Positions 10,238 through 56,170 of a DNA stretch of 64,000 nucleotides are shown here, one piece after another. Position 1 is the first letter of the stretch. Every line of letters begins with the position of its first letter. The notes below the pieces were generated by a model. The model searched no databases, was not told the DNA's origin, and worked only from the letters and a program-made list of their open reading frames with translations. Source of the stretch: Gammaproteobacteria bacterium (GTDB lineage Bacteria; Pseudomonadota; Gammaproteobacteria; PS1; Pseudothioglobaceae); contig OZ244244.1 of the NCBI GenBank assembly GCA_965217125.1, forward strand, positions 719,358-783,357, given 5' to 3'. The position numbers and the translations under genes were made by a program.

Positions 10238-10247
10238 ACAATGTTAT

Positions 10248-10352: not shown

Positions 10353-10385
10353 ATAGAAAGTTATCTTAACTACCACTAACTTATC

Positions 10386-39581: not shown

Positions 39582-40705
39582 AAATTATCGCCAGAGGCGA
39601 AGATAGCAAGCATCAATTTAAAGCTAACATTACTAATGAAACCTCATTAGCTCAAGAAATGATAGCCTTTAGTAATACGCTTGGTGGCATGATGATAATA
39701 GGCATATCAGATGATGGTGCGGTATCAGGCTTAACTCCTGAAAGTATAAAAAAACTAGACAATACTATTTCTAACGCAGCATCACAACAGATAAAACCAG
39801 CAATTAACCCTATAACTGAAAATATTGCATTAAATGACAGTTTAGTAACAGTGATACATATATTTAAAGGAATATCCAAGCCTTATATGGATAAAAACGG
39901 CGTAATTTGGGTAAAAAGCGGTGCCGATAAAAGGAAAGCCACTGCCAGAGAAGAAATTCAGCGTATGTATCAAAGTGCTGGCTTATTGCATGGTGATGAA
40001 ATTTTAGTACCCACTATGACAGTGGCTAATTTAGATGATAATGCTTTTTCTGACTTTTATGAAATACAATATGAAGAAAAATTAGAACAAAATTTACCCT
40101 TTAAGCAACTATTAGATAATTTGAATTTAAGTAGAGATGGCACACTTAATGTTGCAGGAGCTTTACTTTTTGGTAAAGATGTGGCATTAAAATTACCCGC
40201 TTTTATTGTTAAATGTGTTACTTATCCAAATGCTGATATTGATGAAGATAATTATATTGATAGTCAAGATATGACAGGAATATTAGAAAAAGTTTTTGAC
40301 GATACACTTGGATTTATATTAAGGAATGTAGAAAGGAAGCAGCAAAATCAAGGTGTAAATTCACTGGGTAAATTGGCTATTCCAGAAATAGTTTTTGAGG
40401 AGTTGATTGTAAATGCCTTAATTCATCGTGATTATTTTATTTCTGCACCTGTAAGGGTGTTTATTTTTAGCGATCGTATTGAGATTATTAGTCCAGGACA
40501 CCTTCCAAATAACTTGACAATTGAAAATATAAAACAAGGAAATTCAAATATAAGAAACCCAATTTTAGCATCATTTGCCACTAAAATTCTTCCGTATAGA
40601 GGCTTAGGCAATGGAATTAGAAGAGCTATAAAAGCTTATGAAAAAATTGAATTTATTGAAGACCGAGATGGAAATAGCCTAAAAGTTGTTATTTACAAAC
40701 AATAA
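39560..40705 (+). CDS. Schlafen/AlbA_2 domain plus RecG-like ATP-binding (HATPase_c_4-type) protein
   Basis: N-terminal GEDSKHQFKAN......EMIAFSNTLGGMMIIGISDDG (AlbA_2 pattern). C-terminal ELIVNALIHRDY...PGHLPN. Start overlaps the upstream gene by 22 nt. Confidence 0.65.
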   Translation: METSELLEIIARGEDSKHQFKANITNETSLAQEMIAFSNTLGGMMIIGISDDGAVSGLTPESIKKLDNTISNAASQQIKPAINPITENIALNDSLVTVIHIFKGISKPYMDKNGVIWVKSGADKRKATAREEIQRMYQSAGLLHGDEILVPTMTVANLDDNAFSDFYEIQYEEKLEQNLPFKQLLDNLNLSRDGTLNVAGALLFGKDVALKLPAFIVKCVTYPNADIDEDNYIDSQDMTGILEKVFDDTLGFILRNVERKQQNQGVNSLGKLAIPEIVFEELIVNALIHRDYFISAPVRVFIFSDRIEIISPGHLPNNLTIENIKQGNSNIRNPILASFATKILPYRGLGNGIRRAIKAYEKIEFIEDRDGNSLKVVIYKQ

Positions 40706-40909
40706 ACCAATAACCAACATATCAGCATAGTCAAACAAACACTCAAAAGACAAAAAATTAGCTGATTATACTTCGCTTATTACTCATTGAGGCGATTAAA
40801 AGCAGGGTGGAATGAGTAAAGTTAACTTTGCAACCAGTGCATATTTTTGATATTTAGATGGCTTGGACAGGTTAAAATAAATATATTTTATAATTTAGTT
40901 ATATTTACA

Positions 40910-42937
40910 ATGGGCTTTAACCAACAATTAGAAAATCTACTAAAGACTTGCGATAAGTTTATTGATTCAGAAAGTGGTAATTTACTAAAACAAAATATCA
41001 GGCACAGTGCCGAGCAATTTGATGATGAATTGATTGCACTATTGTTTAAAAATCAAGCAACTAAAAGCCATTTTTTTAAGGCTGTGGGCAAGACAACGGT
41101 TTTTAATTATCGCAAATTTGTTGATTATATTGATGATAAAAACTTTTTGTTAGATAGTTACACCAAATTTTCTAATAAAGTCGGTTTAACCATTAGCAAT
41201 AAACACATCAAAGCCGTTGATAAAGTGGCACTTGATTTTCCTTTTAAGGATTGCATTTTAGAGGGCGGACAAAGCAAAGACTGCGAAAAACGCAAAGAGA
41301 TATTTTTTAATGAAGTTTTAGCAAAAGATGAAATTAACCGCTTATTGGATAAAAAAGTTATTACAAATGCTACAAAATACACTCAAAAAAGCATTAGCAA
41401 TAAAGTCCGTTTTAATCGTGATGAAAACGGCATAATTAAAGACAATCTCATCATTAAAGGCAATAATCTTTTAGCGCTACACAGCCTAAAAAGCAACTTT
41501 GCTGGCAAAGTCAAACTAATTTATATTGACCCGCCGTATAACACCGGCAACGATAGTTTTAATTACAACGATAATTTTAATCATTCAACTTGGTTGGTTT
41601 TTATGAAAAATCGCTTGGAAGTAGCAAAGGATTTGTTAAGTGATGACGGAGTTATTTTTGTGCAGTGTGATGATAACGAACAGGCTTATTTGAAGGTGTT
41701 GATGGATGAGGTTTTTGGAAAAGATAAGTTTTTATCAACTGTTTATATTCAAGTTAGATATGAAGGAAAAACATTGGTTGAGGATATGGATTTTCAAAAA
41801 CTTATCGAGAGTATCCATATGTACAAAAAAGGAGTATCAGCAAAGTTAAACAAAGACACGGAACAATATAATTATGATAAATTTGTTTGGGACATACAGG
41901 AAATTGGCGACCATACGACCTTAGAAATGAGCGGGAAAAAAGTTGAAATTTTCAAGAAAGGTAATTACAAAATAATAAAGAAAAAATCTAATAAAGACCT
42001 TTTAAAAGAAATCTGGGCTTCTGGAAAAATATTAGACGGAAACTCTTCTGGTAGATTTTTTAGAGATAATATTGTTGGTAGAGATGTAGACGGACTAGAG
42101 ACTTTATATAAGGTATATGGCATTGGTGATGATAAATTTAATTTTAGATACTTTACTGGTCCAAAAAAGGCAAGTGCAACTAAAGGAAAATATTATCAAG
42201 GCGTTCCTCTTAATAAACTTGATAAAAGTAATACAATAAAATTCCTGCCCATCTCTAATTTTTATAATTTTTCTGGCTCTTTTGGTAACTGTAGAAATGA
42301 AGGAGAGGTTAATTTTAGATCTGGAAAAAAACCAGAAAAACTAATCCAAAGAATAATAGAATTAGCCACCAAAAAAGGCGATATAGTTCTTGATTATCAC
42401 TTAGGCAGTGGCACAACTTGTGCAGTAGCCCATAAAATGGAACGGCAATATATCGGCATTGAACAAATGGATTATATTGAGGATATTGCTGTCAAGCGAA
42501 TGCAAAAAGTCATCGGCAAAACCATTAAAAAAGACGGTGAATTATTGGAATCTGTAGATTTTGATACTGGCGGCATCTCTAAAAGCGTTGATTGGCAGGG
42601 CGGCGGTGAATTTATCTATTTTGAATTAGATAAATACAACCAAACATACATTGACAAGCTAAACGCCATTAAATCAGGGCATGCAAGCAGCAAGACCATC
42701 GAGCAGTTATATGATGAAATAGCCAAACACGCTTTTTTAAATTATGATGTCCAAAGCAACAAACTTTTAGCCAATAAAGCCGATTTTGAAGCATTAAGTC
42801 TAAATAAACAATTAGAATTTTTATTCTCAATCCTCAACAAAAACCAACTATACAAAAACTTATCAGAGATTGACGATAAAGATTTAAGCGTGGATGATAA
42901 AACTAAAGCACTAAACAAAGGATTTTACAAGGAGTAA
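40910..42937 (+). CDS. mod: Type III R-M Mod-like N6/N4 DNA methyltransferase (beta class)
   Basis: Motif IV LIYIDPPYNTGND precedes motif I DIVLDYHLGSGTTCAVAHKMERQYIGIE, with a variable middle region. ATG 40910 is preferred over the TTG 40847 of the ORF track. Confidence 0.8.
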   Translation: MGFNQQLENLLKTCDKFIDSESGNLLKQNIRHSAEQFDDELIALLFKNQATKSHFFKAVGKTTVFNYRKFVDYIDDKNFLLDSYTKFSNKVGLTISNKHIKAVDKVALDFPFKDCILEGGQSKDCEKRKEIFFNEVLAKDEINRLLDKKVITNATKYTQKSISNKVRFNRDENGIIKDNLIIKGNNLLALHSLKSNFAGKVKLIYIDPPYNTGNDSFNYNDNFNHSTWLVFMKNRLEVAKDLLSDDGVIFVQCDDNEQAYLKVLMDEVFGKDKFLSTVYIQVRYEGKTLVEDMDFQKLIESIHMYKKGVSAKLNKDTEQYNYDKFVWDIQEIGDHTTLEMSGKKVEIFKKGNYKIIKKKSNKDLLKEIWASGKILDGNSSGRFFRDNIVGRDVDGLETLYKVYGIGDDKFNFRYFTGPKKASATKGKYYQGVPLNKLDKSNTIKFLPISNFYNFSGSFGNCRNEGEVNFRSGKKPEKLIQRIIELATKKGDIVLDYHLGSGTTCAVAHKMERQYIGIEQMDYIEDIAVKRMQKVIGKTIKKDGELLESVDFDTGGISKSVDWQGGGEFIYFELDKYNQTYIDKLNAIKSGHASSKTIEQLYDEIAKHAFLNYDVQSNKLLANKADFEALSLNKQLEFLFSILNKNQLYKNLSEIDDKDLSVDDKTKALNKGFYKE

Positions 42938-42942
42938 CAATT

Positions 42943-43593
42943 ATGAAATATTCAGATACAATATCTCTAGATTGTCCGCATTGTCAAAGTAAGTGCCAAT
43001 TCATCATAGAAAATCAGGCTTATAGTACTTGTAAATCTGATGGTTTAATTCATTCAAGTTATGCTTGTACAAATTGTTTAGGAAAAGTCGTAACAAAATG
43101 GGGAAGGGCTAAAGATGAAACAACAATATTGTATAGTTGCATTCCACTTTCTGTAAAATATAAGCCAAGAATAGATTTGAATACCATTACCAATGAACAA
43201 GTTAAAAAAGATTTTCAAGAGGCTATATCTTGTTATAACAACGATTTACATAATGCCTGTATGATAATGGCACGGCGTGCTATTCAACAAGAAATGATGA
43301 CGATTAGCGAGGTTAAGGACGATGATAATTTATATAAACAAATAGAGTCAATGGGTATCTCGCAACAATTAAAAAATCTGTTAAAAAAGATTAAAAATTT
43401 TGGTAATTATGGTGCTCATCCTGATTTTTGTTTATTTGATGAAAATAAAGAAATTATTGAAGATGAGCAATTGTTTTCAAAATTAAGTTTAGAGTTTTTG
43501 GATAGATATTTTTCCGACCAATATGAAATTAATGCTTTGGTTAATTCTGCCCCTAAAAGCCAAAAAGAATCAGAAGCCACAAATAAAAAGTAA
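42943..43593 (+). CDS. DUF4145-domain protein with an N-terminal Cys-rich (zinc-ribbon-like) region
   Basis: CPHCQSKC...CTNC. Then FQEAISCYNNDLHNACMIMARRAIQQE...LLKKIKNFGNYGAHPD, the DUF4145 pattern commonly embedded in R-M loci. Confidence 0.65.
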   Translation: MKYSDTISLDCPHCQSKCQFIIENQAYSTCKSDGLIHSSYACTNCLGKVVTKWGRAKDETTILYSCIPLSVKYKPRIDLNTITNEQVKKDFQEAISCYNNDLHNACMIMARRAIQQEMMTISEVKDDDNLYKQIESMGISQQLKNLLKKIKNFGNYGAHPDFCLFDENKEIIEDEQLFSKLSLEFLDRYFSDQYEINALVNSAPKSQKESEATNKK

Positions 43594-43619
43594 AAAATGA
43601 GCGATAAATTTTTATTTGA
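43593..43619 (+). repeat. 27-nt direct repeat (copy 1) equal to the res start region
   Basis: aaaaatgagcgataaatttttatttga occurs at 43593-43619 and at 44328-44354. Copy 1 opens only a 19-codon ORF (MSDKFLFDSIKEEFGRVAS*). Confidence 0.9.
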
Positions 43620-43698
43620 TAGCATAAAAGAAGAGTTTGGCAGAGTTGCGAGCTGATATTGATTATCAGTATATTTCTTCAATTAAACAAAGATTTTT

Positions 43699-43968
43699 AT
43701 GAAAACTGAAATTATCAAAACCCTAACGACTGACTTTGAAAGCTCATCTTATAAAACAGATGAGGGGATGGAATTTTGGCTGGCAAGGGATTTACAGCAT
43801 TTATTGGGTTATAGTAAATGGGACAATTTTAAGAATGTTATTTCAAAAGCAAAAACAGCTTGTGAAGTGAGTGGGCATAATATTTCTGAACATTTTCCCG
43901 ATGTCGGGAAAACGATTAGAATGCCTAATGGGGCAGAAAAAGAAATCATTGCTTTTGCCCAGACTTAA
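43699..43968 (+). pseudogene. N-terminal fragment of a DinD-like (DNA-damage-inducible protein D) gene
   Basis: FWLARDLQHLLGYSKWDNFKNVISKAKTACEVSGHNISEHF resembles the DinD N-terminus. It is only 89 aa where full-length DinD-like proteins are ~270 aa. Confidence 0.6.
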
Positions 43969-43988
43969 CAATATGATGATGGGAATCC

Positions 43989-44342
43989 ATGAAGATTAAA
44001 TTAGAAACTACTGAATTAACTAAGTTTGCAAACTTTGTGATGTTTCAAACGGCTACTGGTAAGGCTAATATTGATGTTTTTTTTGCTGATGAGACACTGT
44101 GGCTAACGCAAAAAAAGATAGCATTATTGTTTGAAACGACACCGCAAAATATTACCATACATCTTAAAAATATTTTTATGACAACAGAGCTACTTGAAAA
44201 AGCAACTTGTAAGGATTTCTTACAAGTTCAACAAGAAGGTAATAGAGAGGTTTCACGGCAGTTTAAATATTACAATCTATCGGATTATGTTTCTGATTTT
44301 GATAAACAAATTAAACAAATAAGCAAGAAAAATGAGCGATAA
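43989..44342 (+). pseudogene. Diverged N-terminal fragment of a RhuM-family gene
   Basis: IDVFFADETLWLTQKKIALLFETTPQNITIHLKNIF...EGNREVSRQFKYYNL parallels aa 20-95 of the full RhuM copy at 55151, then breaks off. Its tail overlaps the res start. Confidence 0.65.
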
Positions 44343-44354
44343 ATTTTTATTTGA
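44328..44354 (+). repeat. 27-nt direct repeat (copy 2) at the true res start
   Basis: Identical to 43593-43619. Confidence 0.9.
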
Positions 44355-46866
44355 AGAATTAAATACGCTGGCTGAATACGGTGCAATAGTTGATAAAAAA
44401 TATCCTTTTATTGATGATAATCTTAATCCAAAATTAGCATTAAGAGATTATCAAAAACAAGCCTTTAATCGCTTTTATTTTTATTTTGAAAGCGATAAAA
44501 AACCTAATAGCAATGTCCACTTAGCTTATCACATGGCAACAGGTAGCGGTAAAACTGTAGTGATGGCAGGGCTTATTCTTTATCTTTATGAACATGGTTA
44601 TCGTAATTTTTTGTTTTTTGTTAATCGTGGGCAAATTGTTGAAAAAACCAAAGATAACTTCATCAATCAACAATCTAATAAATATCTTTTTAACGATAAA
44701 ATTATTATTGATAATAAGCAAGTAGAGCTTAGGGCGGTTGATAATTTTTCTTATTCTTCGGGCGATGATATAAACATTTGTTTTACCACTATTCAAGAGC
44801 TTTTTAGTGATTTTCATAATGAAAAAGAAAACTCATTAACACTTGAAGATTTTAAAGAAAATAAAATAGCCTTAATTGCTGATGAGGCTCATCATATTAG
44901 TGCTAGCACTAAAAAACAAATTGATTGGTTAAAACCCAGCTGGGAAAATACCGTAGAAAAAATCTTTAAAGAACACCGCCAAGACAATATTTTATTAGAA
45001 TTTAGTGCCACCATAGAATTAGATAACAGAGCCGTAAAAGAAAAATACTTAGACAAGATTATTTACCAATATGATTTACAAAGTTTTGTTAAAGATGGTT
45101 TTAGTAAAAAAATTGATTTATTCAAAAGCGATACCAACAAAAAAACACGCATTGGACAGGCGTTAATTGCCTCAATTTATCGCGAGCAGGTGGCAATTAA
45201 ATATGGCTTAAATATCAAGCCTGTGGTTTTATTTAAGTCTGCAAAAATAGCACAAAGCATACAAAACCAAGTTGATTTTCATAAGCAGATTGAAAATTTA
45301 TCGGCAGCAGATTTAGCAAGCATTAAAGACAATAGCAATATTGAGGTTTTGCAAAATGCGTTTAAATTTTTCATTAAGCAAGAAATCAGCCTTAATGCCT
45401 TAGCGGATAAAATAAAACACGCTTTTGATGAGAAAAAATGCTTATGCACCAATAATGATAAGGAATTAGAGTTGAATCAAAAACGCCTCAATAATTTAGA
45501 AGATAATAATAATGCCATCAGGGCGATATTTAGCGTTGACAAGCTCAATGAGGGCTGGGATGTGTTAAATTTGTTTGATATTGTGCGATTATATGAAGGG
45601 CAGAGTCGTGGCGGCTCACAAGGCAGAAAAATAAGCAATAAAACTGTTAGCGAGGCACAATTAGTGGGTAGAGGGGCGAGATACTGCCCATTTATAATAA
45701 AATTTGACGATGACAAGTATAGGCGCAAGTTTGATGACGATATTAAAAATGAATTAAGAATATTAGAGGAATTGTATTTTCACAGTAGCAATGAAAGCCA
45801 ATATATTAGTGAAATTAAGCAAGCATTAATAGAGCAAGGCTTAATGGATGAAAAAGGCAAAGAGCCTGTTAAATTACCCCTTAAATTAAAAGACAAACCC
45901 AAGTTAGCCAATAAATTAATTTTTAAGAATCAGCGCAGGGAAAAATCTTACAAACATATTAAAAATTTTGCAGATTTTGGCATGGTTAAGACTAATTTTA
46001 ATTATGATGTTCATAGTGGCAAAGGTGCATTGATTGATGTTTTTGATAATCAAGAAGATAGGCAAAAAACCTGTAAAAATGATGAAAATTTTATTAATTT
46101 TGTTGGGGTAAATATCGTTAAAAATGCGATATTAAGCAATGATTTTTTTAGCTTTGCTAATCTTAAAAAATCTTTCCCTAATTTGTCATCTATCAATGAA
46201 TTTATAAGCAGTAATGATTATATGGCGCAGTTAGGCATAACCATTAGCAATAAAACTGATGATTTGCAGCCTAAAATTAAACTTAATGTCGCTTTATCAG
46301 TGCTGAATATACTGCAACAAGAAATTAAAGGCAACATTACTAATTATCAAGGCACAAAAGAGTTTGATGGCTTTAATGTTGGCAAGATATTTAATGAAAA
46401 AACGCTATTAATTCCACGCGACAAACAAAAAACAATATTAGATATTCCTCATGATTGGTTTGTATTTGAAAAGTTTTACGGCACCAGTGAAGAAAAATCT
46501 CTTATTGAGTTAATTGCTAGATTGATAAAAGATGTGCAAAGCCAATATAGCGATATTTATTTAATGAGGAATGAGCGACATTTTGCCTTATATGATTTTG
46601 AACAAGGCAGGCGATTTGAGCCAGATTTTGTTTTGTTAGCAAAAAGCAATAAGAGTATTAATTATCAATTTTTTATAGAGCCAAAAGGCAGGTATTTACA
46701 AGCACAAGACAAATGGAAGCAGGATTTTTTACTGGATATTAAGCAAAAAGCCAAGACAACATTAGAATACACTAATCAAAATTATAAAATTATCGGATTA
46801 GAGTTTTATAATAAAGAGGATGAGAATATCTTTAAATCTAAGCTTTCTGCGGAATTAAGCATTTAA
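44332..46866 (+). CDS. res: Type III restriction enzyme Res-like helicase-nuclease
   Basis: Walker A HMATGSGKTVVMAG, DEAH box LIADEAHHIS, helicase C motifs (VDKLNEGWDV, VGRGAR), and a C-terminal PD-(D/E)xK-like FEPDFVLL...FFIEPKG. Confidence 0.8.
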   Translation: MSDKFLFEELNTLAEYGAIVDKKYPFIDDNLNPKLALRDYQKQAFNRFYFYFESDKKPNSNVHLAYHMATGSGKTVVMAGLILYLYEHGYRNFLFFVNRGQIVEKTKDNFINQQSNKYLFNDKIIIDNKQVELRAVDNFSYSSGDDINICFTTIQELFSDFHNEKENSLTLEDFKENKIALIADEAHHISASTKKQIDWLKPSWENTVEKIFKEHRQDNILLEFSATIELDNRAVKEKYLDKIIYQYDLQSFVKDGFSKKIDLFKSDTNKKTRIGQALIASIYREQVAIKYGLNIKPVVLFKSAKIAQSIQNQVDFHKQIENLSAADLASIKDNSNIEVLQNAFKFFIKQEISLNALADKIKHAFDEKKCLCTNNDKELELNQKRLNNLEDNNNAIRAIFSVDKLNEGWDVLNLFDIVRLYEGQSRGGSQGRKISNKTVSEAQLVGRGARYCPFIIKFDDDKYRRKFDDDIKNELRILEELYFHSSNESQYISEIKQALIEQGLMDEKGKEPVKLPLKLKDKPKLANKLIFKNQRREKSYKHIKNFADFGMVKTNFNYDVHSGKGALIDVFDNQEDRQKTCKNDENFINFVGVNIVKNAILSNDFFSFANLKKSFPNLSSINEFISSNDYMAQLGITISNKTDDLQPKIKLNVALSVLNILQQEIKGNITNYQGTKEFDGFNVGKIFNEKTLLIPRDKQKTILDIPHDWFVFEKFYGTSEEKSLIELIARLIKDVQSQYSDIYLMRNERHFALYDFEQGRRFEPDFVLLAKSNKSINYQFFIEPKGRYLQAQDKWKQDFLLDIKQKAKTTLEYTNQNYKIIGLEFYNKEDENIFKSKLSAELSI

Positions 46867-46911
46867 TAAAAAATTCAATTAAAATCACATAATCTAACAC
46901 ACAAACTTTAA

Positions 46912-47376
46912 ATATTCAGAAAAGAGCCGTTTAAGTTGTCATGACCCAAGGTTTTTATGGAAAATAAACTAACTTTAAAAGATGAGTTAACAGAATTTTT
47001 ACTTTACAACACTCCTAACGGTGAGGTGAGGGTAGAAATACTGTTGCATAATGAAACAATATGGCTGCCACAAAAACGCATCGCGCAGCTTTTTAATGTT
47101 GCTACTAATACGGTAAATGAGCACTTAAAAAATATTTATCAATCACAAGAATTGACGCAAGATTCAACTATTCGGAAATTCCGAATAGTTGGACAAGAAG
47201 GCGACAGAGAAGTAGTTAGATTAACTAAATTTTATAACTTAGATGCGATTTTATCAGTTGGCTATCGGGTAAATTCGCAGCAAGCAACTCAATTTAGAAT
47301 TTGGGCGACTAAAACCTTAAAAGAATACATTATTAAAGGTTTTGCGATGGATGATGAGCGTCTTAAAAATGGGCGT
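46912..47376 (+). repeat. ~465-nt direct repeat, left copy (rhuM upstream region plus first 140 codons)
   Basis: Near-identical to 55094-55570. The protein level shows 1 aa difference in 138 (T69 vs K69). Confidence 0.9.
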
Positions 47377-47427
47377 ATTTATGTAAAAGGCAATTTAAGT
47401 CGTTATTTGATTCCTAATGTTTTTTAA
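46957..47427 (+). pseudogene. Truncated RhuM-family gene (5' duplicate of 55151..56170)
   Basis: The first 138 aa are essentially identical to the full copy. It diverges after ...DDERLKNGR into a 17-aa unrelated tail. Confidence 0.85.
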
Positions 47428-47432
47428 GAATA

Positions 47433-49706
47433 ATGAAAACAAATATTAGCCTTTATTTAGACAAAGTTATTGAAAAATCAAACAATAAAATCAATCGTGA
47501 TTTTGATTTTTTAAATATTGACAGGGTTAATATTTTTCTGACTAAACAGGTATTAGAAAGAGAATGTAACTTATGGTTTAAGGTTAATAACGAGTATTTG
47601 AACAAATTTTATGAAGCTATTATTTTTGCCACTTCTGTCTATTTTTTTGAAAAAAATTATTGTGAAGACAAAGAAACAAAACCAAAAAAAGGCGATAAAT
47701 ATAAAAACAAAAGAAGGCAATTTAAGGTATTAAGCATTGAATATGATGATAGCCGTCAGTGCGAGATCGTTAAATTACAGGGAATAAGCAGGGGGAATTC
47801 TGCAATAGTATCTCTTAATCTCAAAGATTTAGATGATAGTTATACAAAATTATCTGATAAGGCGACAAAAAACACCAAAATACCAATCAAATCGATGCTC
47901 AATTTTTTTAAAAAAACATTAAATATAACAGAACAAATACCGTCTTTTCCTCATAAATTCGCCATTGTTACTCAAAAAAATGATTTTGAAAATTGTTTTA
48001 GGATATTAGATAAAAAAATATTTCCTTATATTTATATTGCAGATAGCGGGCATGAAACACCTAATTTACCTTTAGCAGATTGTATGTTTTATGTAGCATT
48101 AAGTTATGAAACTATTAAAACATATATTTTTGATGAGGATATTAAAGTAGAAAGTCTTATTTTTATTGGCAATAAATACAATCATCAAATCCAACAAGAT
48201 ATTAATAGAGAATATTTTAAACGAGCAATTTTCGTTGGCGAACAAGAACCAGATGTGGAATGTTTGAAATGGTGCTGGACTTTACCAGAATATCAATATT
48301 TTGAGAATTTAATACAAGGTGAAGTTAAAATTACTGAAGTCAAGAATGCAGAATTAACACAATTAACCCAAGGTTTTACAAATTATCTTCAAACATTAGA
48401 AAAAGATTATTATGTTGATTTAAAAAGATTATTTACCTATATTTCCTATACTTATCCCTTGGTTGTTTTGACAGATGATAGTCGCTTGCAAAATAGAGTA
48501 GAGGATTTATTACATAGTTTTAAAATAAAATCAGAGCAAATATTGGGCGAAAAATTTAGTAGTACTGGCGAGGATTGCACAGAAATTCATCAACAATTAG
48601 TTAGGGATTATGGTGTTATTTTAAAGCAATTTAATTGGGCCAATAATGCCAAGACTAAAGCCCTGAAACAACAAAAAGAAACTGATTATTTATTAGTGCC
48701 AGAACGCCAAACCTTAGAGGTTTGGAAAAGTGAAATTAAAAAACTTAACTGGCAAAAAGTAAAAATTATCTCCTTTCGCAGCTTAAAAATAATACCAAAA
48801 CAAAGCAATATTACCGTTTTATCAATCAAAGATTATGATTTTTATTGCCATTTAAAAAATAGTAATCATCATATTTATTGGCTGCTTTATGACCAAGAAC
48901 AACGATGCTATGATAATTTTACTAAACGATACGATAATGAATTAACCCAAGAACTTAACTCAAAAGATAGGAAGAAATTAACAGGTATAGAGTATCCTAA
49001 TGAAATTAAAACAGAAGGAATTGATGATTTAATAGGCAGGATTTGGGGCAATGAAACGCATGCAAGAGAACATACAATTACTTATCAAGATCATATTGAT
49101 AAAAAGATTGTTTTTACTGATAATACGGCAGTAGAATTATCAGCAAATAGTAGTGTTATATGGATTAACAATAAAAATAAACCTCGAAAGTATAAAGTAG
49201 CTGATTTAACTATTGGCGATAAAATAAGAATTTATGAAAATCAACACAAGGAAGTTTTATTTGATTCTATTATCCAAAATGACACAAATGGTAAATTTAA
49301 TAAAATTTTAGAGTGTTCTAAATTATGGAAAAAAATTCTAACTGATTATTGTGCTGATGATAAAACAGGCAAAATAAATGAAATTGCTGATTTATGCGAT
49401 GTTGTATTTTTAACGGCTGAGGGTTGGTTAAAAAAATCAAAAACTAAATTCCCTAAAAACATCAAGCCATTAAGAAATATTTTAGGTGCAAATTATGGTG
49501 AAATTTATCAAAATAACAAGCACTATAATAGTATTATGATTGCATTAGGTAGAGATTTAAGCGATGAAGTATCTGATTATATTATTAGAAAGCAAAAAGG
49601 TGAGTTATTGAGTAAATTTGATGATGTTTTAATTAACAAAATTTCAGAACACAATATGCCAATTAAAACTATTAAAAAAATAGAAATTATAGATAGAGAC
49701 AGATAA
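47433..49706 (+). CDS. Large protein of unknown function (757 aa); DrmE-like by position and size only
   Basis: No motif recognised by eye. Stop overlaps the drmA-like ATG by 1 nt (TAATG). Class 2 DISARM loci carry a domain-less drmE directly upstream of drmA. Confidence 0.35.
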   Translation: MKTNISLYLDKVIEKSNNKINRDFDFLNIDRVNIFLTKQVLERECNLWFKVNNEYLNKFYEAIIFATSVYFFEKNYCEDKETKPKKGDKYKNKRRQFKVLSIEYDDSRQCEIVKLQGISRGNSAIVSLNLKDLDDSYTKLSDKATKNTKIPIKSMLNFFKKTLNITEQIPSFPHKFAIVTQKNDFENCFRILDKKIFPYIYIADSGHETPNLPLADCMFYVALSYETIKTYIFDEDIKVESLIFIGNKYNHQIQQDINREYFKRAIFVGEQEPDVECLKWCWTLPEYQYFENLIQGEVKITEVKNAELTQLTQGFTNYLQTLEKDYYVDLKRLFTYISYTYPLVVLTDDSRLQNRVEDLLHSFKIKSEQILGEKFSSTGEDCTEIHQQLVRDYGVILKQFNWANNAKTKALKQQKETDYLLVPERQTLEVWKSEIKKLNWQKVKIISFRSLKIIPKQSNITVLSIKDYDFYCHLKNSNHHIYWLLYDQEQRCYDNFTKRYDNELTQELNSKDRKKLTGIEYPNEIKTEGIDDLIGRIWGNETHAREHTITYQDHIDKKIVFTDNTAVELSANSSVIWINNKNKPRKYKVADLTIGDKIRIYENQHKEVLFDSIIQNDTNGKFNKILECSKLWKKILTDYCADDKTGKINEIADLCDVVFLTAEGWLKKSKTKFPKNIKPLRNILGANYGEIYQNNKHYNSIMIALGRDLSDEVSDYIIRKQKGELLSKFDDVLINKISEHNMPIKTIKKIEIIDRDR

Positions 49707-52700
49707 TGGCAAAAGAACAGATAGAGATATTTACAAAGACTATTACAGAACAATTATTAGGACCTGGGTCTGATGTGTTTTATGGTGATAATGAGCATGA
49801 AATTATTGGCGAGTTTCCACTTAGAAGATACTATACAGGTGTTTTATTTCCTAACAAAATAACAAATAACCAAGAGGAAAAAGACACAAATATAGCAGAG
49901 GATTCTGGTGAAAACTTAGCAATTTATGAAACTCAAGACGATAACGAAACTGAACAAGGAGACGAGCAAGAACCAAAAAAAGATATAAAAGATGATGAAA
50001 AAGAAGACACTGGCTTGTATAATCATTTTCACCCATCCGATATGGGCATTAGTTTTTGCGTGGATAAACAAGTTGAAACTTTAGCGGTTAATTTTTCTTT
50101 TGCAACTTATAAACAAGCCAAACAAACTGAAGTTAAAGTTAATATGGCAGTAAATGCTTATCATACTTTGATAGATGATAAATATAGTTTTCCTTTTAAA
50201 GATATTTTGCAATATGAAAAGATTGACGAGCAAAACGGTCATTTATCATTAGCAAGGAAATTGAAAGGAGATAAAAAAGGTAAGGCGAGAACCAAAGAAT
50301 ATCAAATATTTGATGATTGGCAAAAATCAATAGATACAGAACATAGAGAAATTCTACGCCCATTATATGAGAAATTTAATAAAATTATTGGCAGATTGTG
50401 GCAAAGAACAGCCGTCACTATTACTGAAAATATTAAATTAGAGGCTAATAATGAACCTACATTATTTGCTGATTTTCAAAAAGCAGGTTGGACACTTAAA
50501 ACTTACCAAAAAGATAAGCAAAAATATATTAAAGTCCAATTAGTAAACTTATTTGAAGCCATTCCTAATAATCAATTTTCTAATAGCAAAGAGCAGTTAA
50601 ATGAATCATGTTTATTCCAAGCAGAAATTAGCATTCATTCTGATAAATTGTTATCTTATAAGCCTTATGACAGCAATCAAAATGATTTTGATAAAGAAAA
50701 ACAAACGCTAGATTTTCTATATAGGGAAGTTAAGCATTTTGCCATAGGTCACCATTGTAGCGCACTCTGGGAGCCGTTAGAAAAACCCGATAAAGTAATA
50801 ACATCTTTTCTGCCTACCTATGATTTAAAAAGTACCGAAACCAAAATTAAAAATTTTGTTAATATTCCATTATTTGATTTATCTATTTGGGGCAAAAATC
50901 AAACAGAAATCATCCAAGGTTTAGATAGTTTTATTAATAAATACCTTGGTTGGATTAAAAAACAAAAGCAAGACAATGATGCTAATACTGATATTGGCAA
51001 AAATATTATTAGCAATTTAGAGACAACTGCTAATAGGTTAAAAGAGGGAGTGCAATTATTAGCCAACAATCAGCAATTATTTAAAGCCTTTCAATATGCT
51101 AATACAGCGATGTTATTGCAATTTTCACTAAAAGATGATTTTTACCAAAACATACAAAAAGCAGAAAAAACACAATGCCCTTGTAGTGAAGAGCAAAAGC
51201 AAAAAATAACTTATCATCCCTTTCAATTGGCTTTTTTCCTGCTAAGTTTAGAGAGCAGTATTAACCCCCAATCAAACCACCGGACGGAAGCAGTTGATTT
51301 AATTTGGTTTCCAACAGGCGGTGGTAAAACCGAAGCCTATTTAGCGGTGGCTGCTTTGACTGTTATCTGGCGAAGAATGACTAATGAAAAATATCAAGGC
51401 GTATCCGTTATTATGCGTTACACTTTGCGATTATTAACCGCACAGCAATTTGAAAGAGCAACCAAACTCATTACCGTTTTAGAATATTTACGACAACAAT
51501 TTGAGAGTGATTTAAAGTCTGAAAAAATTAGTATTGGTTTATGGATTGGTAGCTTATCAACACCTAATAAGCTTGAAGATGCTAAAAAAGCAACAAAACA
51601 AATAACCGAAAAAGGCAGTGACGCTAATAAATTTCAAATTGACAACTGTCCATGGTGTAATGAAAAATTAATCAAAGAAAATGGGACAACCCACACACAT
51701 GCTTTTGACGCAAGAAGTCGAGATTTAAAAATAAAATGTCTTAATAAGGGCTGTTGTTTTTCTAAAAGTAGTGGCTTGCCTGTGCAAGTTGTTGATGAGG
51801 TTTTATATAATCAACCACCGACTTTATTATTTGCGACTGTTGATAAGATAGCAAGGTTAAGTTGGCAAGAAAAAGGGCATCAATTTTTTAATAGTTTGGG
51901 CGATGAAAACGATTTACCGCCTGATTTAATTATCCAAGATGAATTGCACTTATTAACAGGCCCCTTAGGCTCAATTGTGGGTTTATTTGAAGCGGTCATT
52001 GAGGATTTATGCACTAAAAATAACAGCAGCCCTAAAATTATTGCCTCTACTGCGACTACTCGCAATACATCAGAACAAGTTAAACAATTATATGGTAATA
52101 GGGCGGTCAATATTTTTCCACCATCTGGACTAACCTATGATAATAGTTTTTTCTTTAAAGAATCCAAAGACAGCAACCGTCAATATTTGGGTTTTATGCC
52201 CACAGGTAAAACAGGAATAGATACTCAAATCCACTTATTAACTGTATTGTTTATTGCTCGGCTAAAAACTTATCTAAAAAATGAAGAACAAAATGACCCT
52301 TATTGGACTTTGGTGTCTTATTATAATAGTTTAAGAAGCGTGGGTAGGATGTCTAATAAAGTTGGCGATGAAATACAAACACTTATTAAGCAAACCCAAA
52401 AGCGCTTACAACTAGCTCAGTATGGTTTTAATTATTTTGGTTTAAAAGGCAGAACTAGAGAATTAACCTCTAGGATTGACAGTGCAAAAATCAAACAAAA
52501 TTTAGACCAATTGGAACAAAATTTTGCACTAGATAAGCCCAATGATAATGGTTATCAGAATGTTAAAAAAGAAGTTGTGGATTTAGTATTAGCAACTAAT
52601 ATGCTCTCGGTAGGCATTGATATAGATAGATTAAATATGATGATGATTAATGGTATGCCCAGAAATACCGCAGAATATATTCAAGCTTCATCACGGGTGG

Positions 52701-53215
52701 GCAGGAAAGATAAAGGTTTAGTATTAGCATTTTTTGATGCAAATCGTGCTCGGGATAAATCTTATTTTGAGCATTTTTTATCATTTCATCAATCACTTTA
52801 TAAACAAATTGAACCATTAAGCATTACCCCATTTACCCAAAATACTATTGATAAAATGATAGCCAGTTTGATGGTAACTTATGTGCGTCACAAACAAAAC
52901 CTTAATAAAAATAAGGATATTGAACATTTTACTCAAGACCATATCAAAGATTTAAAAATATTACTTAAAAGGCGTTTTCCTGATAATGAGAATATGCAAT
53001 TTTGTATTGACAAATTAGACAGATTAACCAATGATTGGCTGGAAAAAATACAACAAGAAGACCCATATAAACAATATTCTGGTAAAGATAGTGCGTTGTT
53101 AGCAAAACCAGATAGTAAAGATTCATTAGCCGACACTAAATGGGTAGTTATGCAATCAATGCGTGATATTGATAGTAGCAGTTTTATTCAAATACAACAA
53201 AATTATGAGCAGTAA
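49706..53215 (+). CDS. drmA: DISARM DrmA-like superfamily-2 helicase
   Basis: Motif I WFPTGGGKTEAYL, motif II IIQDELHLLTGPLG, ASTAT, motif VI YIQASSRVGRKDKG, and a Zn-ribbon CPWCNEKL...CLNKGCC. Followed by a separate DUF1998 gene. Confidence 0.65.
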   Translation: MAKEQIEIFTKTITEQLLGPGSDVFYGDNEHEIIGEFPLRRYYTGVLFPNKITNNQEEKDTNIAEDSGENLAIYETQDDNETEQGDEQEPKKDIKDDEKEDTGLYNHFHPSDMGISFCVDKQVETLAVNFSFATYKQAKQTEVKVNMAVNAYHTLIDDKYSFPFKDILQYEKIDEQNGHLSLARKLKGDKKGKARTKEYQIFDDWQKSIDTEHREILRPLYEKFNKIIGRLWQRTAVTITENIKLEANNEPTLFADFQKAGWTLKTYQKDKQKYIKVQLVNLFEAIPNNQFSNSKEQLNESCLFQAEISIHSDKLLSYKPYDSNQNDFDKEKQTLDFLYREVKHFAIGHHCSALWEPLEKPDKVITSFLPTYDLKSTETKIKNFVNIPLFDLSIWGKNQTEIIQGLDSFINKYLGWIKKQKQDNDANTDIGKNIISNLETTANRLKEGVQLLANNQQLFKAFQYANTAMLLQFSLKDDFYQNIQKAEKTQCPCSEEQKQKITYHPFQLAFFLLSLESSINPQSNHRTEAVDLIWFPTGGGKTEAYLAVAALTVIWRRMTNEKYQGVSVIMRYTLRLLTAQQFERATKLITVLEYLRQQFESDLKSEKISIGLWIGSLSTPNKLEDAKKATKQITEKGSDANKFQIDNCPWCNEKLIKENGTTHTHAFDARSRDLKIKCLNKGCCFSKSSGLPVQVVDEVLYNQPPTLLFATVDKIARLSWQEKGHQFFNSLGDENDLPPDLIIQDELHLLTGPLGSIVGLFEAVIEDLCTKNNSSPKIIASTATTRNTSEQVKQLYGNRAVNIFPPSGLTYDNSFFFKESKDSNRQYLGFMPTGKTGIDTQIHLLTVLFIARLKTYLKNEEQNDPYWTLVSYYNSLRSVGRMSNKVGDEIQTLIKQTQKRLQLAQYGFNYFGLKGRTRELTSRIDSAKIKQNLDQLEQNFALDKPNDNGYQNVKKEVVDLVLATNMLSVGIDIDRLNMMMINGMPRNTAEYIQASSRVGRKDKGLVLAFFDANRARDKSYFEHFLSFHQSLYKQIEPLSITPFTQNTIDKMIASLMVTYVRHKQNLNKNKDIEHFTQDHIKDLKILLKRRFPDNENMQFCIDKLDRLTNDWLEKIQQEDPYKQYSGKDSALLAKPDSKDSLADTKWVVMQSMRDIDSSSFIQIQQNYEQ

Positions 53216-55031
53216 ATTTATTCAAACATCAAGCAGAAAAATGATTAATGTTTTTGCTGGTGTTGGTGCTTTAGTGGAAGATATAAAAGGTGTTGTCAAG
53301 GTTTTACCCATTAATAGGTGGATATTTTTTACAAAAAATAAACATTCAGAAGAACAATACCACATTAATGATTATCGTTTATTGCAGCGTTTAAAAGATG
53401 ATAAAGGCTTCCCTAAGTTAAAGGCTTTAGTAAAAGCACCAACTAACACAACAAAAAGTTACACTGACCAGCAATACGCACAACCTACTGATTGGGAAAT
53501 AGTAGCGACCGCTGAATATTTTCCAAAATGGATGTTTTGCAGTAAATGTAGTCGCTTTAAGCATCTAAAAGATTGGTGGCAAAAGTGGGATAAAGCAATC
53601 AAACAATATGATAATAATAATACTAACAAAGCAAAAGATTTTTTTACGCCACCCAAATGTGGTCATTGTTATGAACAAGCAAAAAAGAATAGAAAAGGGC
53701 GGTGGTATCAAGAATTAACTCAAGTGCGATTTATTATGATTAGTTCCGATGGCAAAATTAGTGATGTGCCTTGGGGTAAGTGGCTTACTTTTACAAAACA
53801 AGCCAAACACGAAGAAGATAAAACCATAGATTTTAGTAGCTGGCAACCTTGTTGTGATAATCAAGATTTATATTATAAGCAAGGCGATTTTGAAGATTTA
53901 GCTGGTATCAATATTAGTTGTAAAAAATGTAATAAACGCTCAACGCTAACTGGTTTGTATGATTTGAGTTATTTTTCTGATAAAGAAAAGCAACATAGAT
54001 ACAAAATGGTTGTTCGTGCTAGTAATAGCGTTTATTATCCAATTTTGGTGCATAGTTTATATTTGCCTAGTGATAGCAGTATTAGTGATACTGACCAAGC
54101 AAAAATAGATAGATGGCTTGATAAAAACAAAACTATTGATTTTATGTTTGATGCTTTAGAAGAGCGTTACCCAAAATCTGAAATACAGAGTTATATGGAC
54201 ACAAAAGACAGCCAAAACTTTCAAAAAGAATTAGTTTATCGGCAAAAAGAGTACCAATTTATTTTAGAAAATACAGATTATAAACAAGATAATCTGACTT
54301 TTAGCCATCAAGAAGTAAATTTAACAAAAATTAGTCATTTAGTCAAAATATCTCGTTTAAAAATTACCACAGTACAAACAGGCTATACTCGACAACAGCC
54401 CTTAGATATTGATTTATTTTTAAATAATGAAATTGATACAATAAAGCCAAAATACACATCAGATAAAGCTGATAAAGCTGAATATTTATTAGGTATTGAG
54501 AATTTTGGTGAGGGTATTTTTATTGCCTTTAATGAAAATATTGCACAAAACTATTTAGCGGATAATCAAGAAAAAATACAAGCTGTTTTTAATAAAAGTA
54601 AAAAAAGTATCTTATTTAAGAATCATTTTAAAAATATAGAGCATTTGGCAAAATTTATGACTGTGCATACGATGTCGCATTTACTAATGAAAGAATTAGA
54701 ATTTTCTTGTGGCTATCCAACCGTTTCTTTAAGTGAGCGCTTATTTATTAATGATGAAAATATGCAGGGTGTTCTTATTTATACCGTAGGAGGCATGGAA
54801 GGCAGTTATGGTGGTTTAGCCTCACAAGCACAACCTGATAAATTTAAACAATTATTAGACAACGCTTTAGAACGAGCAAAAGATTGTGCTTCTGACCCAA
54901 TTTGCTACCACTCAGAAGGGCAAGGCGTTGGGGAAATGAATTTAGCCGCCTGTTATTCTTGTGCTTTAGTTGCTGAAAATGCCTGTGAGTTGTTTAATTC
55001 TTTTTTAGATAGAAGAAGTATTGCAAAATAA
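53205..55031 (+). CDS. drmB: DUF1998-domain protein (DISARM DrmB-like)
   Basis: C-terminal HTMSHLLMKELEFSCGYP...GGMEGSYGGL...DPICYHSEGQG..NLAACYSCAL, the DUF1998 signature with a Cys cluster. ATG 53205 overlaps the drmA-like stop by 11 nt and is preferred over the GTG at 53163. Confidence 0.7.
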   Translation: MSSKFIQTSSRKMINVFAGVGALVEDIKGVVKVLPINRWIFFTKNKHSEEQYHINDYRLLQRLKDDKGFPKLKALVKAPTNTTKSYTDQQYAQPTDWEIVATAEYFPKWMFCSKCSRFKHLKDWWQKWDKAIKQYDNNNTNKAKDFFTPPKCGHCYEQAKKNRKGRWYQELTQVRFIMISSDGKISDVPWGKWLTFTKQAKHEEDKTIDFSSWQPCCDNQDLYYKQGDFEDLAGINISCKKCNKRSTLTGLYDLSYFSDKEKQHRYKMVVRASNSVYYPILVHSLYLPSDSSISDTDQAKIDRWLDKNKTIDFMFDALEERYPKSEIQSYMDTKDSQNFQKELVYRQKEYQFILENTDYKQDNLTFSHQEVNLTKISHLVKISRLKITTVQTGYTRQQPLDIDLFLNNEIDTIKPKYTSDKADKAEYLLGIENFGEGIFIAFNENIAQNYLADNQEKIQAVFNKSKKSILFKNHFKNIEHLAKFMTVHTMSHLLMKELEFSCGYPTVSLSERLFINDENMQGVLIYTVGGMEGSYGGLASQAQPDKFKQLLDNALERAKDCASDPICYHSEGQGVGEMNLAACYSCALVAENACELFNSFLDRRSIAK

Positions 55032-55093
55032 TCAATAATTCACAACCCAATAACAGCCAAAATCAAGTATATATAAGAACGCACAGATTTGAG

Positions 55094-55570
55094 ATATTCA
55101 GAAAAAGAGAGAGCTAAACTGTCATGACCCAACATTAAACAAAGATTTTTATGGAAAATAAACTAACTTTAAAAGATGAATTAACAGAATTTTTACTTTA
55201 CAACACTCCTAACGGTGAGGTGAGGGTAGAAATACTGTTGCATAATGAAACAATATGGCTGCCACAAAAACGCATCGCACAGCTTTTTAATGTTGCTACT
55301 AATACGGTAAATGAGCATTTAAAAAATATTTATCAATCACAAGAATTAAAGCAAGATTCAACTATTCGGAAATTCCGAATAGTTGGACAAGAAGGCGACA
55401 GAGAAGTAGTTAGATTAACTAAATTTTACAATTTAGATGCGATTTTATCAGTTGGCTATCGGGTAAATTCGCAGCAAGCAACTCAATTTAGAATTTGGGC
55501 GACTAAAACTTTAAAAGAATACATTATTAAAGGTTTTGCGATGGATGATGAGCGTCTTAAAAATGGGCGT
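55094..55570 (+). repeat. ~465-nt direct repeat, right copy (start of the intact rhuM)
   Basis: See 46912-47376. The upstream parts share atattcagaaaa(a)gag...gtcatgacccaa...tttttatggaaaataaac. Confidence 0.9.
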
Positions 55571-56170
55571 TATTTTGGCAAGGATTATTTTAAAGAACTT
55601 TTAGAACGGGTTCGTTCAATTAGGGCAAGCGAGAGGCAAATTTACCAGCAAATTACTGATATTTTTGCTGAATGTTGTATTGATTATGACAACAAATCAG
55701 CAATAACTAAAAACTTTTATGCTAGCGTGCAAAATAAATTCCACTATGCAATAGCAAGGCAAACCGCAGCAGAGATTATTAGTAGCCATAGCGATAAAAG
55801 CCTACTCAATGCAGGCTTGCAAACTTGGAAAAATGCCCCTGATGGCAGAATATTAAAATCTGATGTAGTGATAGCAAAAAACTATTTAAAAGAGGATGAA
55901 ATTAAAAAATTAGAGCGCACTATCGCCAGTTATTTTGACTATATTGAAAATCAAATTGAGCAAAGAAAAGAATTAACTATGCAAGCTTTAAGTCAGTCTG
56001 TGGATAAATTCCTTACTTTTAATGATTTTAAGATACTCGATGGACTTGGTTCTATCTCACACCAAAAAGCTAAAGAAAAAGCCTATTTGGAATATGAGGC
56101 GTTTAACAAAACGCAAAAAATTAACTCTGATTTTGACAAACATATCAGAACAAAAGGCGGGCTTGAGTGA
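55151..56170 (+). CDS. rhuM: RhuM-family protein (full length, 339 aa)
   Basis: VRVEILLHNETIWLPQKRIAQLF....NTVNEHLKNIY...YNLDAILSVGYRVNSQQATQFRIWATKTLKEYIIKGF..DDERLKNG, the typical RhuM pattern. Confidence 0.8.
   Translation: MENKLTLKDELTEFLLYNTPNGEVRVEILLHNETIWLPQKRIAQLFNVATNTVNEHLKNIYQSQELKQDSTIRKFRIVGQEGDREVVRLTKFYNLDAILSVGYRVNSQQATQFRIWATKTLKEYIIKGFAMDDERLKNGRYFGKDYFKELLERVRSIRASERQIYQQITDIFAECCIDYDNKSAITKNFYASVQNKFHYAIARQTAAEIISSHSDKSLLNAGLQTWKNAPDGRILKSDVVIAKNYLKEDEIKKLERTIASYFDYIENQIEQRKELTMQALSQSVDKFLTFNDFKILDGLGSISHQKAKEKAYLEYEAFNKTQKINSDFDKHIRTKGGLE

Follow-up and report, generated by a model that had tools for sequence, protein, structure and literature searches.

We analyzed a 64,000-nucleotide stretch of a Gammaproteobacteria bacterium assembly (GCA_965217125.1, contig OZ244244.1, positions 719,358 to 783,357; hereafter the window). 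At positions 47433-55031 it holds three co-directional, translationally coupled genes related to the anti-phage system DISARM (defense island system in association with restriction-modification). Analysis of the open reading frames (ORFs) of the window recovered the genes, their tight coupling, and the motifs GGGKT, DELH, and QASSRVGR exactly as an earlier sequence-only reading of this DNA had described them. The three genes, hereafter the triad, are:

47433..49706, forward strand: X, DrmE-like, 757 aa, with a predicted ATPase-dead two-RecA superfamily 2 (SF2) helicase fold
49706..53215, forward strand: drmA, an SF2 (YprA-type) helicase of 1169 aa that retains every ATPase motif
53205..55031, forward strand: drmB, the DUF1998/MZB zinc-binding partner of DrmA, 608 aa counted from ATG

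The X stop and the DrmA start share one base (TAATG), the DrmA and DrmB genes overlap by 11 nt, and the DrmB stop is followed after 46 nt by a repeat that carries the start of the gene rhuM; the other copy of this repeat lies upstream of X. An upstream GTG start at 53163 is likewise open for the DrmB ORF. The segment between the two repeats is referred to below as the cassette.

By sequence homology, the 1169-aa and 608-aa proteins are DrmA and DrmB, as had been proposed for the helicase and the DUF1998 protein, and PADLOC, NCBIfam, and the solved Serratia complex 7S9V agree on this. The helicase matches the PADLOC DrmA model at 1e-194 and the Serratia DrmA structure (PDB 7S9V_A) at 1.6e-133, and its best NCBIfam model by far is DISARM_DrmAS (NF038325), at 864 bits. 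The N-terminal ~500 residues of the cassette DrmA share homology with this class-2 profile, whose positions 6-682 are covered. Helicase motifs I, II, and VI (GGGKT538, DELH745, and QASSRVGR993) are intact, as they are in all triads compared. The 608-aa protein scores 288.7 bits against NF038324, above the cut-off of 240, and matches PADLOC DrmB at 2.4e-55 and PDB 7S9V_B at 4.6e-31. Its Cys clusters are conserved, and it is encoded by a separate DUF1998 gene directly 3' of drmA, which is the arrangement that characterizes DISARM.

Other helicase systems were considered and rejected, among them the Druantia DruE-like and MrfA-like families to which the sequence-only reading had conceded that the two proteins might turn out to belong. 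DruE models reached only E 6e-5 to 1.5e-4 (about 1e-4), and DpdJ of the Dpd system 1.9e-15 in PADLOC; the NCBIfam DpdJ model gave 48 bits, far from its cut-off of 800, and the partner genes of both systems are absent. PDB 6ZNP, representing MrfA/YprA, matched only at E 1e-3 over 54 residues, the helicase and DUF1998 parts lie in separate genes, and there is no adjacent exonuclease gene. For ARMADA, both the BrxHII-like SNF2 helicase and the PglX-like methyltransferase were absent in PADLOC and Pfam scans. ARMADA, BRIGADE, TALON, Druantia, and Dpd share the helicase superfamily and the DUF1998 zinc module with the cassette (10.1101/2025.09.15.676423). They differ from it in that helicase and DUF1998 are usually fused and accompanied by BrxHII/PglX, 7-deazaguanine genes, or nuclease fusions, all absent here. 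With marginal DruE and DpdJ matches and no partner genes, the cassette is not ARMADA, BRIGADE, TALON, Druantia, Dpd, or MrfAB.

Repair helicases also belong to the YprA family, and several triads elsewhere are flanked by housekeeping genes (L003, L004, and L014 below), so the three genes might be read as an MrfA/YprA-type DNA-repair or housekeeping module with no role in immunity. We consider this very improbable. The similarity to YprA/MrfA is marginal, an MrfB-like exonuclease is absent, and the splitting of helicase and DUF1998 over two genes is a DISARM hallmark according to Bell et al. Furthermore, the distribution of the triad is sporadic and rare, and in the window it is inserted in a low-GC defense island that is missing from a syntenic relative.

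Of the core by which DISARM is defined (drmA, drmB, and drmC), the third gene was not found, nor was a DISARM methylase. No methyltransferase or phospholipase D (PLD) homolog lies between the repeats in PADLOC, Pfam, and phmmer scans, which bears out the earlier observation that the cassette lacks both, and PADLOC and Pfam give no PLD match, and so no DrmC, anywhere in the cassette or the surrounding island. A C5-cytosine methyltransferase, such as the self-marking DrmMII of class 2, is absent from window region 36-57 kb and from every triad locus. The class 1 accessory proteins DrmD and DrmMI have no PADLOC match among the cassette and island proteins. The sole methylase nearby is a Type III Mod (N6_N4_Mtase), 4.5 kb upstream of the cassette.

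The cassette resembles class 2 DISARM (drmE-drmA-drmB-drmC-drmMII; Ofir et al. 2018, as summarized in 10.1101/2021.12.28.474362 and PMC9142583) in its short-type DrmA, for which DrmAS is the best NCBIfam model, in the separate drmB directly 3' of drmA, and in the tight coupling of its genes. A protein of ~750-800 aa also lies directly upstream of drmA in both, and the cassette version appears to be a remote homolog of the drmE-position protein. The operon differs in having neither drmMII or any other methylase nor drmC (PLD), in a DrmA and DrmB only ~36% and ~26% identical to the class-2 example and placed in a separate clade, and in an X that PADLOC and NCBIfam models do not recognize. With class 1 (drmD-drmMI-drmA-drmB-drmC) the cassette shares a DrmA-DrmB core homologous to the Serratia 7S9V complex and an accessory SF2-fold protein beside it, DrmD there and the helicase-like X here. 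However, DrmD is an active SNF2 ATPase, whereas X has no ATPase motifs, and the cassette has no N6-adenine methylase, no PLD, and a short form of DrmA.

The sequence-only reading had named the gene for X drmE. X has no match in Pfam, PADLOC, NCBIfam, or PDB sequences, and when 54 diverse X relatives were compared with PADLOC, none matched, bar one marginal Csa3. X belongs to a rare family: its relatives form only 16 clusters (at 90% identity) in an index of 5.8 billion proteins, and an exhaustive HMMER search of 1.84 billion representatives raised the family to 181 clusters at E <= 1e-3. The viral contigs that were searched held no relative. As a proxy for DrmE, we used L. plantarum plasmids on which DrmMII (PADLOC 1e-137), an 801-aa protein, DrmA, and DrmB follow one another, a class-2-type locus. 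BLASTP found no similarity between X and this 801-aa protein, which is likewise unmatched by PADLOC and NCBIfam; in tblastn it was found on three L. plantarum plasmids only. DrmE models match neither it, nor three P. megaterium ORFs upstream of drmA, nor other accessory proteins. Profile comparison nevertheless aligned the X family (A4) with the family of the 801-aa protein (A6) over 620 columns (hhalign 98.3%, E 1.7e-14), and on this profile evidence X is a remote homolog of the drmE-position protein of a DrmMII-bearing class-2-type locus. This alignment lends the proposed drmE identity indirect support, and no DrmE hidden Markov model (HMM) confirmed it. Searching the class-1 and variant loci with local HMMs built from A4 and A6 brought up no additional members.

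We also modeled X with AlphaFold2, at a mean predicted local distance difference test score (pLDDT) of 80. The model begins with an N-terminal helical and beta-barrel region, followed by two alpha/beta RecA-like lobes split by a helical insertion; beyond the lobes, a long helix leads to a small beta-barrel, and the C-terminus is helical. Foldseek matched the model in the PDB to SF2 helicase cores only (E 4e-6 to 1e-4, probability about 1.0), namely MDA5, LGP2, DRH-1, Dicer, Hef, and the XPF helicase-like domain. Template modeling (TM) scores were low, at 0.2-0.27, because X is a multi-domain protein and domain orientation enters the score. Walker A and DExH are absent from the conserved columns of the X-family alignment. 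The model of the L. plantarum DrmE had low confidence (pLDDT 62); it has the same order of secondary-structure elements as X and matches Chd1, Hef, XPF, and MDA5. These predicted folds suggest that DrmE-type proteins, including X, are ATPase-dead helicase-fold proteins. In its predicted fold, X follows XPF/Hef/FANCM and the RIG-I-like receptors through RecA1, helical insertion, RecA2, long helix, and C-terminal domain, and the XPF helicase-like domain lacks ATPase motifs, as X does, which suggests a role for X in nucleic-acid-structure recognition or as a scaffold. The analogy is one of fold only, as X shows no detectable sequence similarity to these proteins and has no nuclease or CARD domains.

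A search of genomes for drmE-drmA-drmB triads without drmC or drmM, as the sequence-only reading had recommended, showed that the trio recurs in the same order and with intact genes in about ten other neighborhoods, where it stands alone. A narrower X alignment (A2) yielded 9 genome loci. The neighborhoods are:

L001, sister strain with ~97-98% nucleotide identity in housekeeping genes: truncated rhuM (rhuM'), triad, rhuM, and hisC, as in the window
L002, metagenome contig: triad between a Cas6-like/dsr region and fdhD
L003, L008, L012, and L015, Candidatus Spongiihabitans: housekeeping flanks
L004 and L013, gammaproteobacterial metagenome-assembled genome (MAG): triad wedged between panB and panC
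L014, MAG of an uncultured gammaproteobacterium: triad flanked by MoaA and FdhD at one end and by MFS transporters at the other
L017, Marinifilum: a WYL protein nearby and Type I hsdM/hsdS 7-9 kb upstream
L018, Calditrichota: an integrase and a TPR protein upstream; CYTH, Schlafen, and gcvP downstream
L016 and L019, short contigs: little or no flank
L005, Haliscomenobacter plasmid: adjoining a PtuA-like ATPase, an HNH-like protein, and a dGTPase
L010, Hymenobacter plasmid, with a distantly related X: directly after a Type I restriction-modification (R-M) system

At L004 (9210-18290 of a 1.6-Mb MAG), the triad has only 35 nt upstream of it, the end of DrmB runs into the predicted start of panC, and no gene for mobility can be seen. 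In L018, the Schlafen/AlbA_2 protein downstream of the triad lies behind the CYTH ORF.

At none of the recurring triad loci does a methyltransferase or PLD gene belong to the operon. We searched all ORFs of the triad loci by phmmer with seeds for C5, beta-class, gamma-class, and MmeI-type methylases, DrmC, and SNF2-PLD proteins, and recovered just the window Mod and two HsdM genes. L002, L003/L008, L004, L005, L014, and L018 have no DNA methyltransferase within about 10 kb.

This distribution bears on the possibility that the triad is a methylation-guided DISARM restriction module whose self-protecting methylase acts in trans, provided by the Type III Mod here and by other R-M or orphan methylases elsewhere. 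A complete Type III mod/res lies directly upstream in the window and the sister strain, and a Type I R-M system adjoins the triad in L010 and lies 7-9 kb off in L017. Published work also gives methylation a part in DISARM: DrmAB ATPase activity is lowered by methylated DNA (PMC9142583), and loss of drmMII from class 2 is reported to be deleterious (cited in 10.1101/2021.12.28.474362). Yet neither the type of methylase nor its linkage is conserved, with none near the six contexts listed above, and in L001 the cassette is set apart from res by 6.3 kb that hold unrelated genes. One conserved DrmA clade would have to be served by three different R-M types. We therefore regard a methylase in trans as unlikely, and the lack of conserved linkage to the Type III Mod among triad loci argues against an obligatory dependence on it.

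The same three genes persist in the same arrangement at 26-95% X identity in Gammaproteobacteria, Bacteroidota, Calditrichota, and Deltaproteobacteria. In neighbor-joining trees, a simple method applied to a small sampling, the triad DrmAs form one clade and the triad DrmBs form one clade. These are separate from class 1 (L022 and L023), class 2 (L006), and other DrmAB variants (L009, L020, L021, and L024). Between the window and L001, the ratio of nonsynonymous to synonymous substitution rates (dN/dS) was 0.33 for X, 0.15 for DrmA, and 0.14 for DrmB, and 0.06-0.21 for flanking housekeeping genes; the triad genes are under purifying selection. The triad also keeps company with defense genes: Type III R-M, a TrlF/Ppl-like ATPase, and Schlafen in the window, Gabija in L007, Type I R-M in L010 and L017, and a dGTPase with the PtuA-like protein in L005.

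On these data, the idea that the cassette is a decaying, non-functional remnant of class-2 DISARM, reduced from five genes by the loss of drmC and drmMII in transfer, is largely refuted, and we give it hardly any credence. It would account for the two of five canonical genes that are missing, and the cassette does lie among recombination scars (the truncated rhuM in the window; hisC and rhuM fragments in L001). Against it, the three ORFs are intact with their catalytic motifs and evolve at the low dN/dS values given above, the same architecture persists in four bacterial groups, and the triad DrmA and DrmB form a clade of their own instead of being scattered among class-2 loci.

Other DrmAB arrangements were encountered in the survey. 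On the Photobacterium damselae plasmid pdp3 (L021, 2734-10464), a DrmA-like protein is followed by DrmB, a UvrD/GajB-like ATPase, and a 467-aa unknown protein, an arrangement that is also methylase-less and has no X homolog. The DrmAB gene sets differ again on B. cereus (L020) and Tsukamurella (L024) plasmids. The accessory genes that accompany DrmAB modules thus seem to be many and varied.

Stand-alone recurrence, a clade of its own, and purifying selection together favor a self-contained subtype over a broken or Mod-dependent cassette. The block at 47433-55031 is thus probably a self-contained three-gene DISARM-related defense module, naturally without a dedicated methyltransferase or drmC, whose defense function we infer. 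Of the three explanations that the sequence-only reading had left side by side, the comparative data favor the self-contained triad over an inactive cassette and over one bound to the Type III Mod. The triad matches the drmE-drmA-drmB set reported as essential for class-2 DISARM protection; class 2 reportedly needs each of drmE, drmA, and drmB and can dispense with drmC (10.1101/2021.12.28.474362). The DISARM-like clade holds many uncharacterized classes (Bell et al. 2025, 10.1101/2025.09.15.676423), and in the searchable literature we found no description of a methylase-less, PLD-less three-gene form, so the triad looks like an undescribed DISARM subtype. Two published candidates for the same system proved different: the McrBC-associated "DISARM-like cassette" (Bell et al. 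2024) has an ARMADA-type arrangement, and the SAR11 "DISARM-like" operon carries a DrmMII-type methylase.

Several observations weigh against a self-contained module. The proposed defense role rests on homology and neighborhood, and an effector nuclease is not recognizable in X, DrmA, or DrmB. The link of X to DrmE runs through the L. plantarum proxy and not through the founding DrmE of B. paralicheniformis, X and that proxy both went unmatched by the DrmE models of PADLOC, and the 864 bits of DrmA fall below the NCBI equivalog cut-off of 950 for NF038325. A complete R-M system lies within 10 kb in 3 of 9 well-flanked contexts (the window, L010, and L017), and since the survey covered triad neighborhoods, the carrier genomes may hold an unlinked methylase partner elsewhere. 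The deleterious effect of drmMII loss reported for class-2 DISARM (cited in 10.1101/2021.12.28.474362) means that a methylase-free drmE-drmA-drmB set might be toxic. By the same source, removal of the methylases from the Serratia class 1 system led to no autoimmunity.

How such a module could work without a methylase is suggested by published work on DrmAB, which is auto-inhibited by a trigger loop and activated by single-stranded DNA or 5' overhangs, and whose ATPase is merely dampened by methylated DNA (PMC9142583). By analogy, DrmA, the ATP-driven SF2/YprA helicase, and DrmB, an OB-CON-DUF1998 "canopy," would form an auto-inhibited complex. This complex may load on single-stranded or 5'-overhang structures of invading or replicating DNA and, once loaded, translocate as a motor and block replication. 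X, with its predicted catalytically dead RIG-I/Hef/XPF-like helicase fold, could act as a DNA-structure sensor or adaptor that licenses or directs DrmAB, and self DNA would be spared through structural specificity and not through an epigenetic mark.

An alternative that also dispenses with a methylase is a modification-dependent, Type IV-like system, in which the DrmA N-terminal region reads modified DNA and no methylase of its own is needed. A missing cognate methylase is typical of Type IV systems. An EVE-like domain, a modified-base reader, has been annotated in the N-terminus of DISARM DrmA (Bell et al. 2025, Table S2, 10.1101/2025.09.15.676423), and the cassette DrmA is homologous to the class-2 profile in its N-terminal ~500 residues. 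However, published DrmAB prefers unmethylated DNA (PMC9142583), the EVE-like fold is a candidate for the cassette DrmA, and in the window a Type III methylase, which modifies host DNA, is present alongside the triad. We consider this improbable, more so than a methylase in trans. Returning to the self-contained module, we put forward more tentatively than the module itself, and as a possibility that falls somewhat short of a favored view, that a dead-helicase DrmE-like protein and DrmAB could constitute complete, autonomous immunity, in which self and foreign are told apart purely by DNA structure, such as free 5' single-stranded ends or intermediates of replication, with no epigenetic mark and no dedicated nuclease. 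If true, the triad would be a natural minimal DISARM core, to which the canonical systems would add a methylase and a PLD.

The cassette is bracketed by near-identical direct repeats that contain the start of rhuM, as the sequence-only reading had recognized. The features of these repeats and of the junction are:

46896..47380, forward strand: left direct repeat, with the rhuM upstream region and the first ~140 rhuM codons
46957..47427, forward strand: rhuM', the truncated copy, 156 aa, with RhuM residues 1-140 and 16 unrelated codons
47377..47432, forward strand: junction and 56-nt leader before X, where rhuM homology ends (GGGCG, then TATTTATG...); left boundary of the imported cassette
55078..55575, forward strand: right direct repeat, with the rhuM upstream region and the first ~140 codons of the intact rhuM
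55151..56170, forward strand: intact rhuM, last gene of the island, 339 aa (PF13310 349 bits; PADLOC PDC-S05 1.4e-147)

BLASTN aligned the repeats, of which the window has just two copies, at 93% over 498 columns. The alignment has 3 gaps, and an 11-nt indel falls within its upstream part. The core (46948-47247 and 55142-55441) is 97% identical over 300 nt, the coding part about 97%, and each copy includes about 60-70 nt of rhuM upstream sequence. The alignment remains near-identical through ...DDERLKNGR and then breaks abruptly, which is where the left copy had been described as truncated. That copy matches only positions 1-70 of Pfam PF13310 (Virulence_RhuM), as well as short PADLOC PDC-S05 models, while the intact right copy matches positions 1-249 of 252. 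An assembly artifact had been raised as a concern; the truncation junction and gene order are the same on an independent long contig of the sister strain (L001), so the repeats are not such an artifact. The junction sequence is identical in the window and L001, and points to one ancestral event.

The rhuM' ORF is kept open in the sister strain too (159 aa), and its stop sits 5 nt upstream of X with no recognizable terminator between, so rhuM' plausibly supplies transcription and translation signals. It probably provides the promoter and 5' end of the triad operon. Scanning for promoters and terminators was uninformative, as the counts were close to those obtained with shuffled sequence. The repeats offer an obvious route for loss of the 7.7-kb cassette by homologous recombination, and the idea of a repeat-bracketed cassette was confirmed. 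The predicted excised allele with a single rhuM was not found, because the searchable collections contain no closer strain: looking for exact copies of the RhuM and HisC proteins, and of P0174, a cluster representative at 100% identity, gave nothing. In a metagenome RhuM scan of which the best 80 loci were kept, all were at <=70% identity and none carried the triad, which argues that the association with rhuM is specific to the window lineage. On two unrelated metagenome contigs (L041, 5555-5863; L049, 1545-1919), a full rhuM has within a few kb of it a second, divergent fragment of the RhuM N-terminus (residues ~16-120/137), and PADLOC includes short PDC-S05 models of 138-174 aa. N-terminal-only RhuM proteins or fragments near rhuM may be common and not peculiar to this locus.

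The cassette and its repeats form the distal part of a larger defense island:

36948..56170, forward strand: whole defense island, 19 kb, inserted between pheA (35747-36838) and hisC (56230-57294)
40847..46866, forward strand: Type III R-M, with mod at 40847-42937 and res at 44332-46866 (PADLOC MTase_III 1e-182, REase_III 2.5e-127)

The island has a GC content of 31.4%, against 38.0% in the downstream flank, and carries in order the TrlF/Ppl-like ATPase, the Schlafen/AlbA_2 protein, Type III mod and res, rhuM', the triad, and rhuM. Rfam and tRNA scans of the island found nothing. On a related chromosome of 1.58 Mb (L105), pheA and hisC are adjacent and the backbone is otherwise identical, with the TonB receptor, serC, serA, pheA, hisC, tyrA, aroA, lepB, parB, and parA in common with the window. 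The best named homologs of HisC belong to Thioglobaceae/SUP05-type symbionts, at about 70-75% identity. Linkage to the Type III R-M system is absent from the other, non-sister triad loci, which makes it context and not a conserved partner of the triad.

The cassette probably joined this pheA-hisC island by rhuM-anchored recombination, which left the truncated rhuM 5' copy abutting X. In L001 (3108-9956), res is followed by RhuM codons 1-25 and then by a 6.3-kb insert not present in the window, with a 574-aa unknown protein, Unstab_antitox, an AAA_15/AAA_21 ATPase, and an IS30-type transposase. At its right end, the insert carries a duplicate that runs from the rhuM 3' end across the intergenic region and through hisC codons 1-42, and the rhuM' abutting it is a mosaic whose central third derives from a different allele. 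These nested partial rhuM and hisC duplications look like scars of repeated cargo accretion at a pheA-hisC hotspot. We infer that accretion proceeded either through a rhuM/hisC homologous anchor and an illegitimate end or through Campbell-type single crossovers, between which the data do not discriminate.

Other genes of the island and window were also characterized. Between mod and res (42943-44342, forward strand) lie three small ORFs: a DUF4145 protein with a weak PD-T7-4 match, an 89-aa N-terminal fragment of DinD/Bro-N, and a 117-aa paralog of the RhuM N-terminal domain, 40% identical to RhuM residues 14-100. This brings the RhuM-N-domain ORFs in the window to three. At the pheA end of the island (36948-40705, forward strand), a TrlF-family AAA-like ATPase with a PHP-like N-terminus (NF045780 556 bits, PADLOC Ppl 2e-36) overlaps by 22 nt the Schlafen/AlbA_2 protein, which also carries HATPase_c_4, and the pair is a probable two-gene defense module. 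Outside the island, four tandem paralogous giant ORFs of 1133, 1505, 976, and 1514 aa (6836-22720, forward strand) are ~90% identical over their N-terminal 143 residues, which comprise a signal peptide and a DIDGNGTINASNDG dockerin/EF-hand-like motif. Toward the C-terminus they are repetitive and differ from one another, and none of the four has a Pfam match at 1e-5. They may be proteins that a symbiont secretes or displays on its surface and that are undergoing diversification. Finally, a 300-aa fusion of a NERD nuclease-related domain and a topoisomerase-type C4 zinc ribbon lies at 23364-24266 on the reverse strand.

A conserved operon of a DrmE-like protein, DrmA, and DrmB would provide a minimal system in which to probe DISARM restriction and self-avoidance without a methylase, which is relevant given that the DISARM PLD "nuclease" is dispensable and that methylation explains specificity only partly. 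The predicted folds suggest that DrmE-type proteins, as ATPase-dead helicase-fold sensors, are a structural counterpart of the class 1 SNF2 protein DrmD. Since PADLOC has no model for X and its DISARM definitions need more than the two genes recognized here, the subtype is probably under-counted in defense censuses. The nested rhuM and hisC duplications, meanwhile, offer a concrete case of defense-island growth by homology-anchored accretion.

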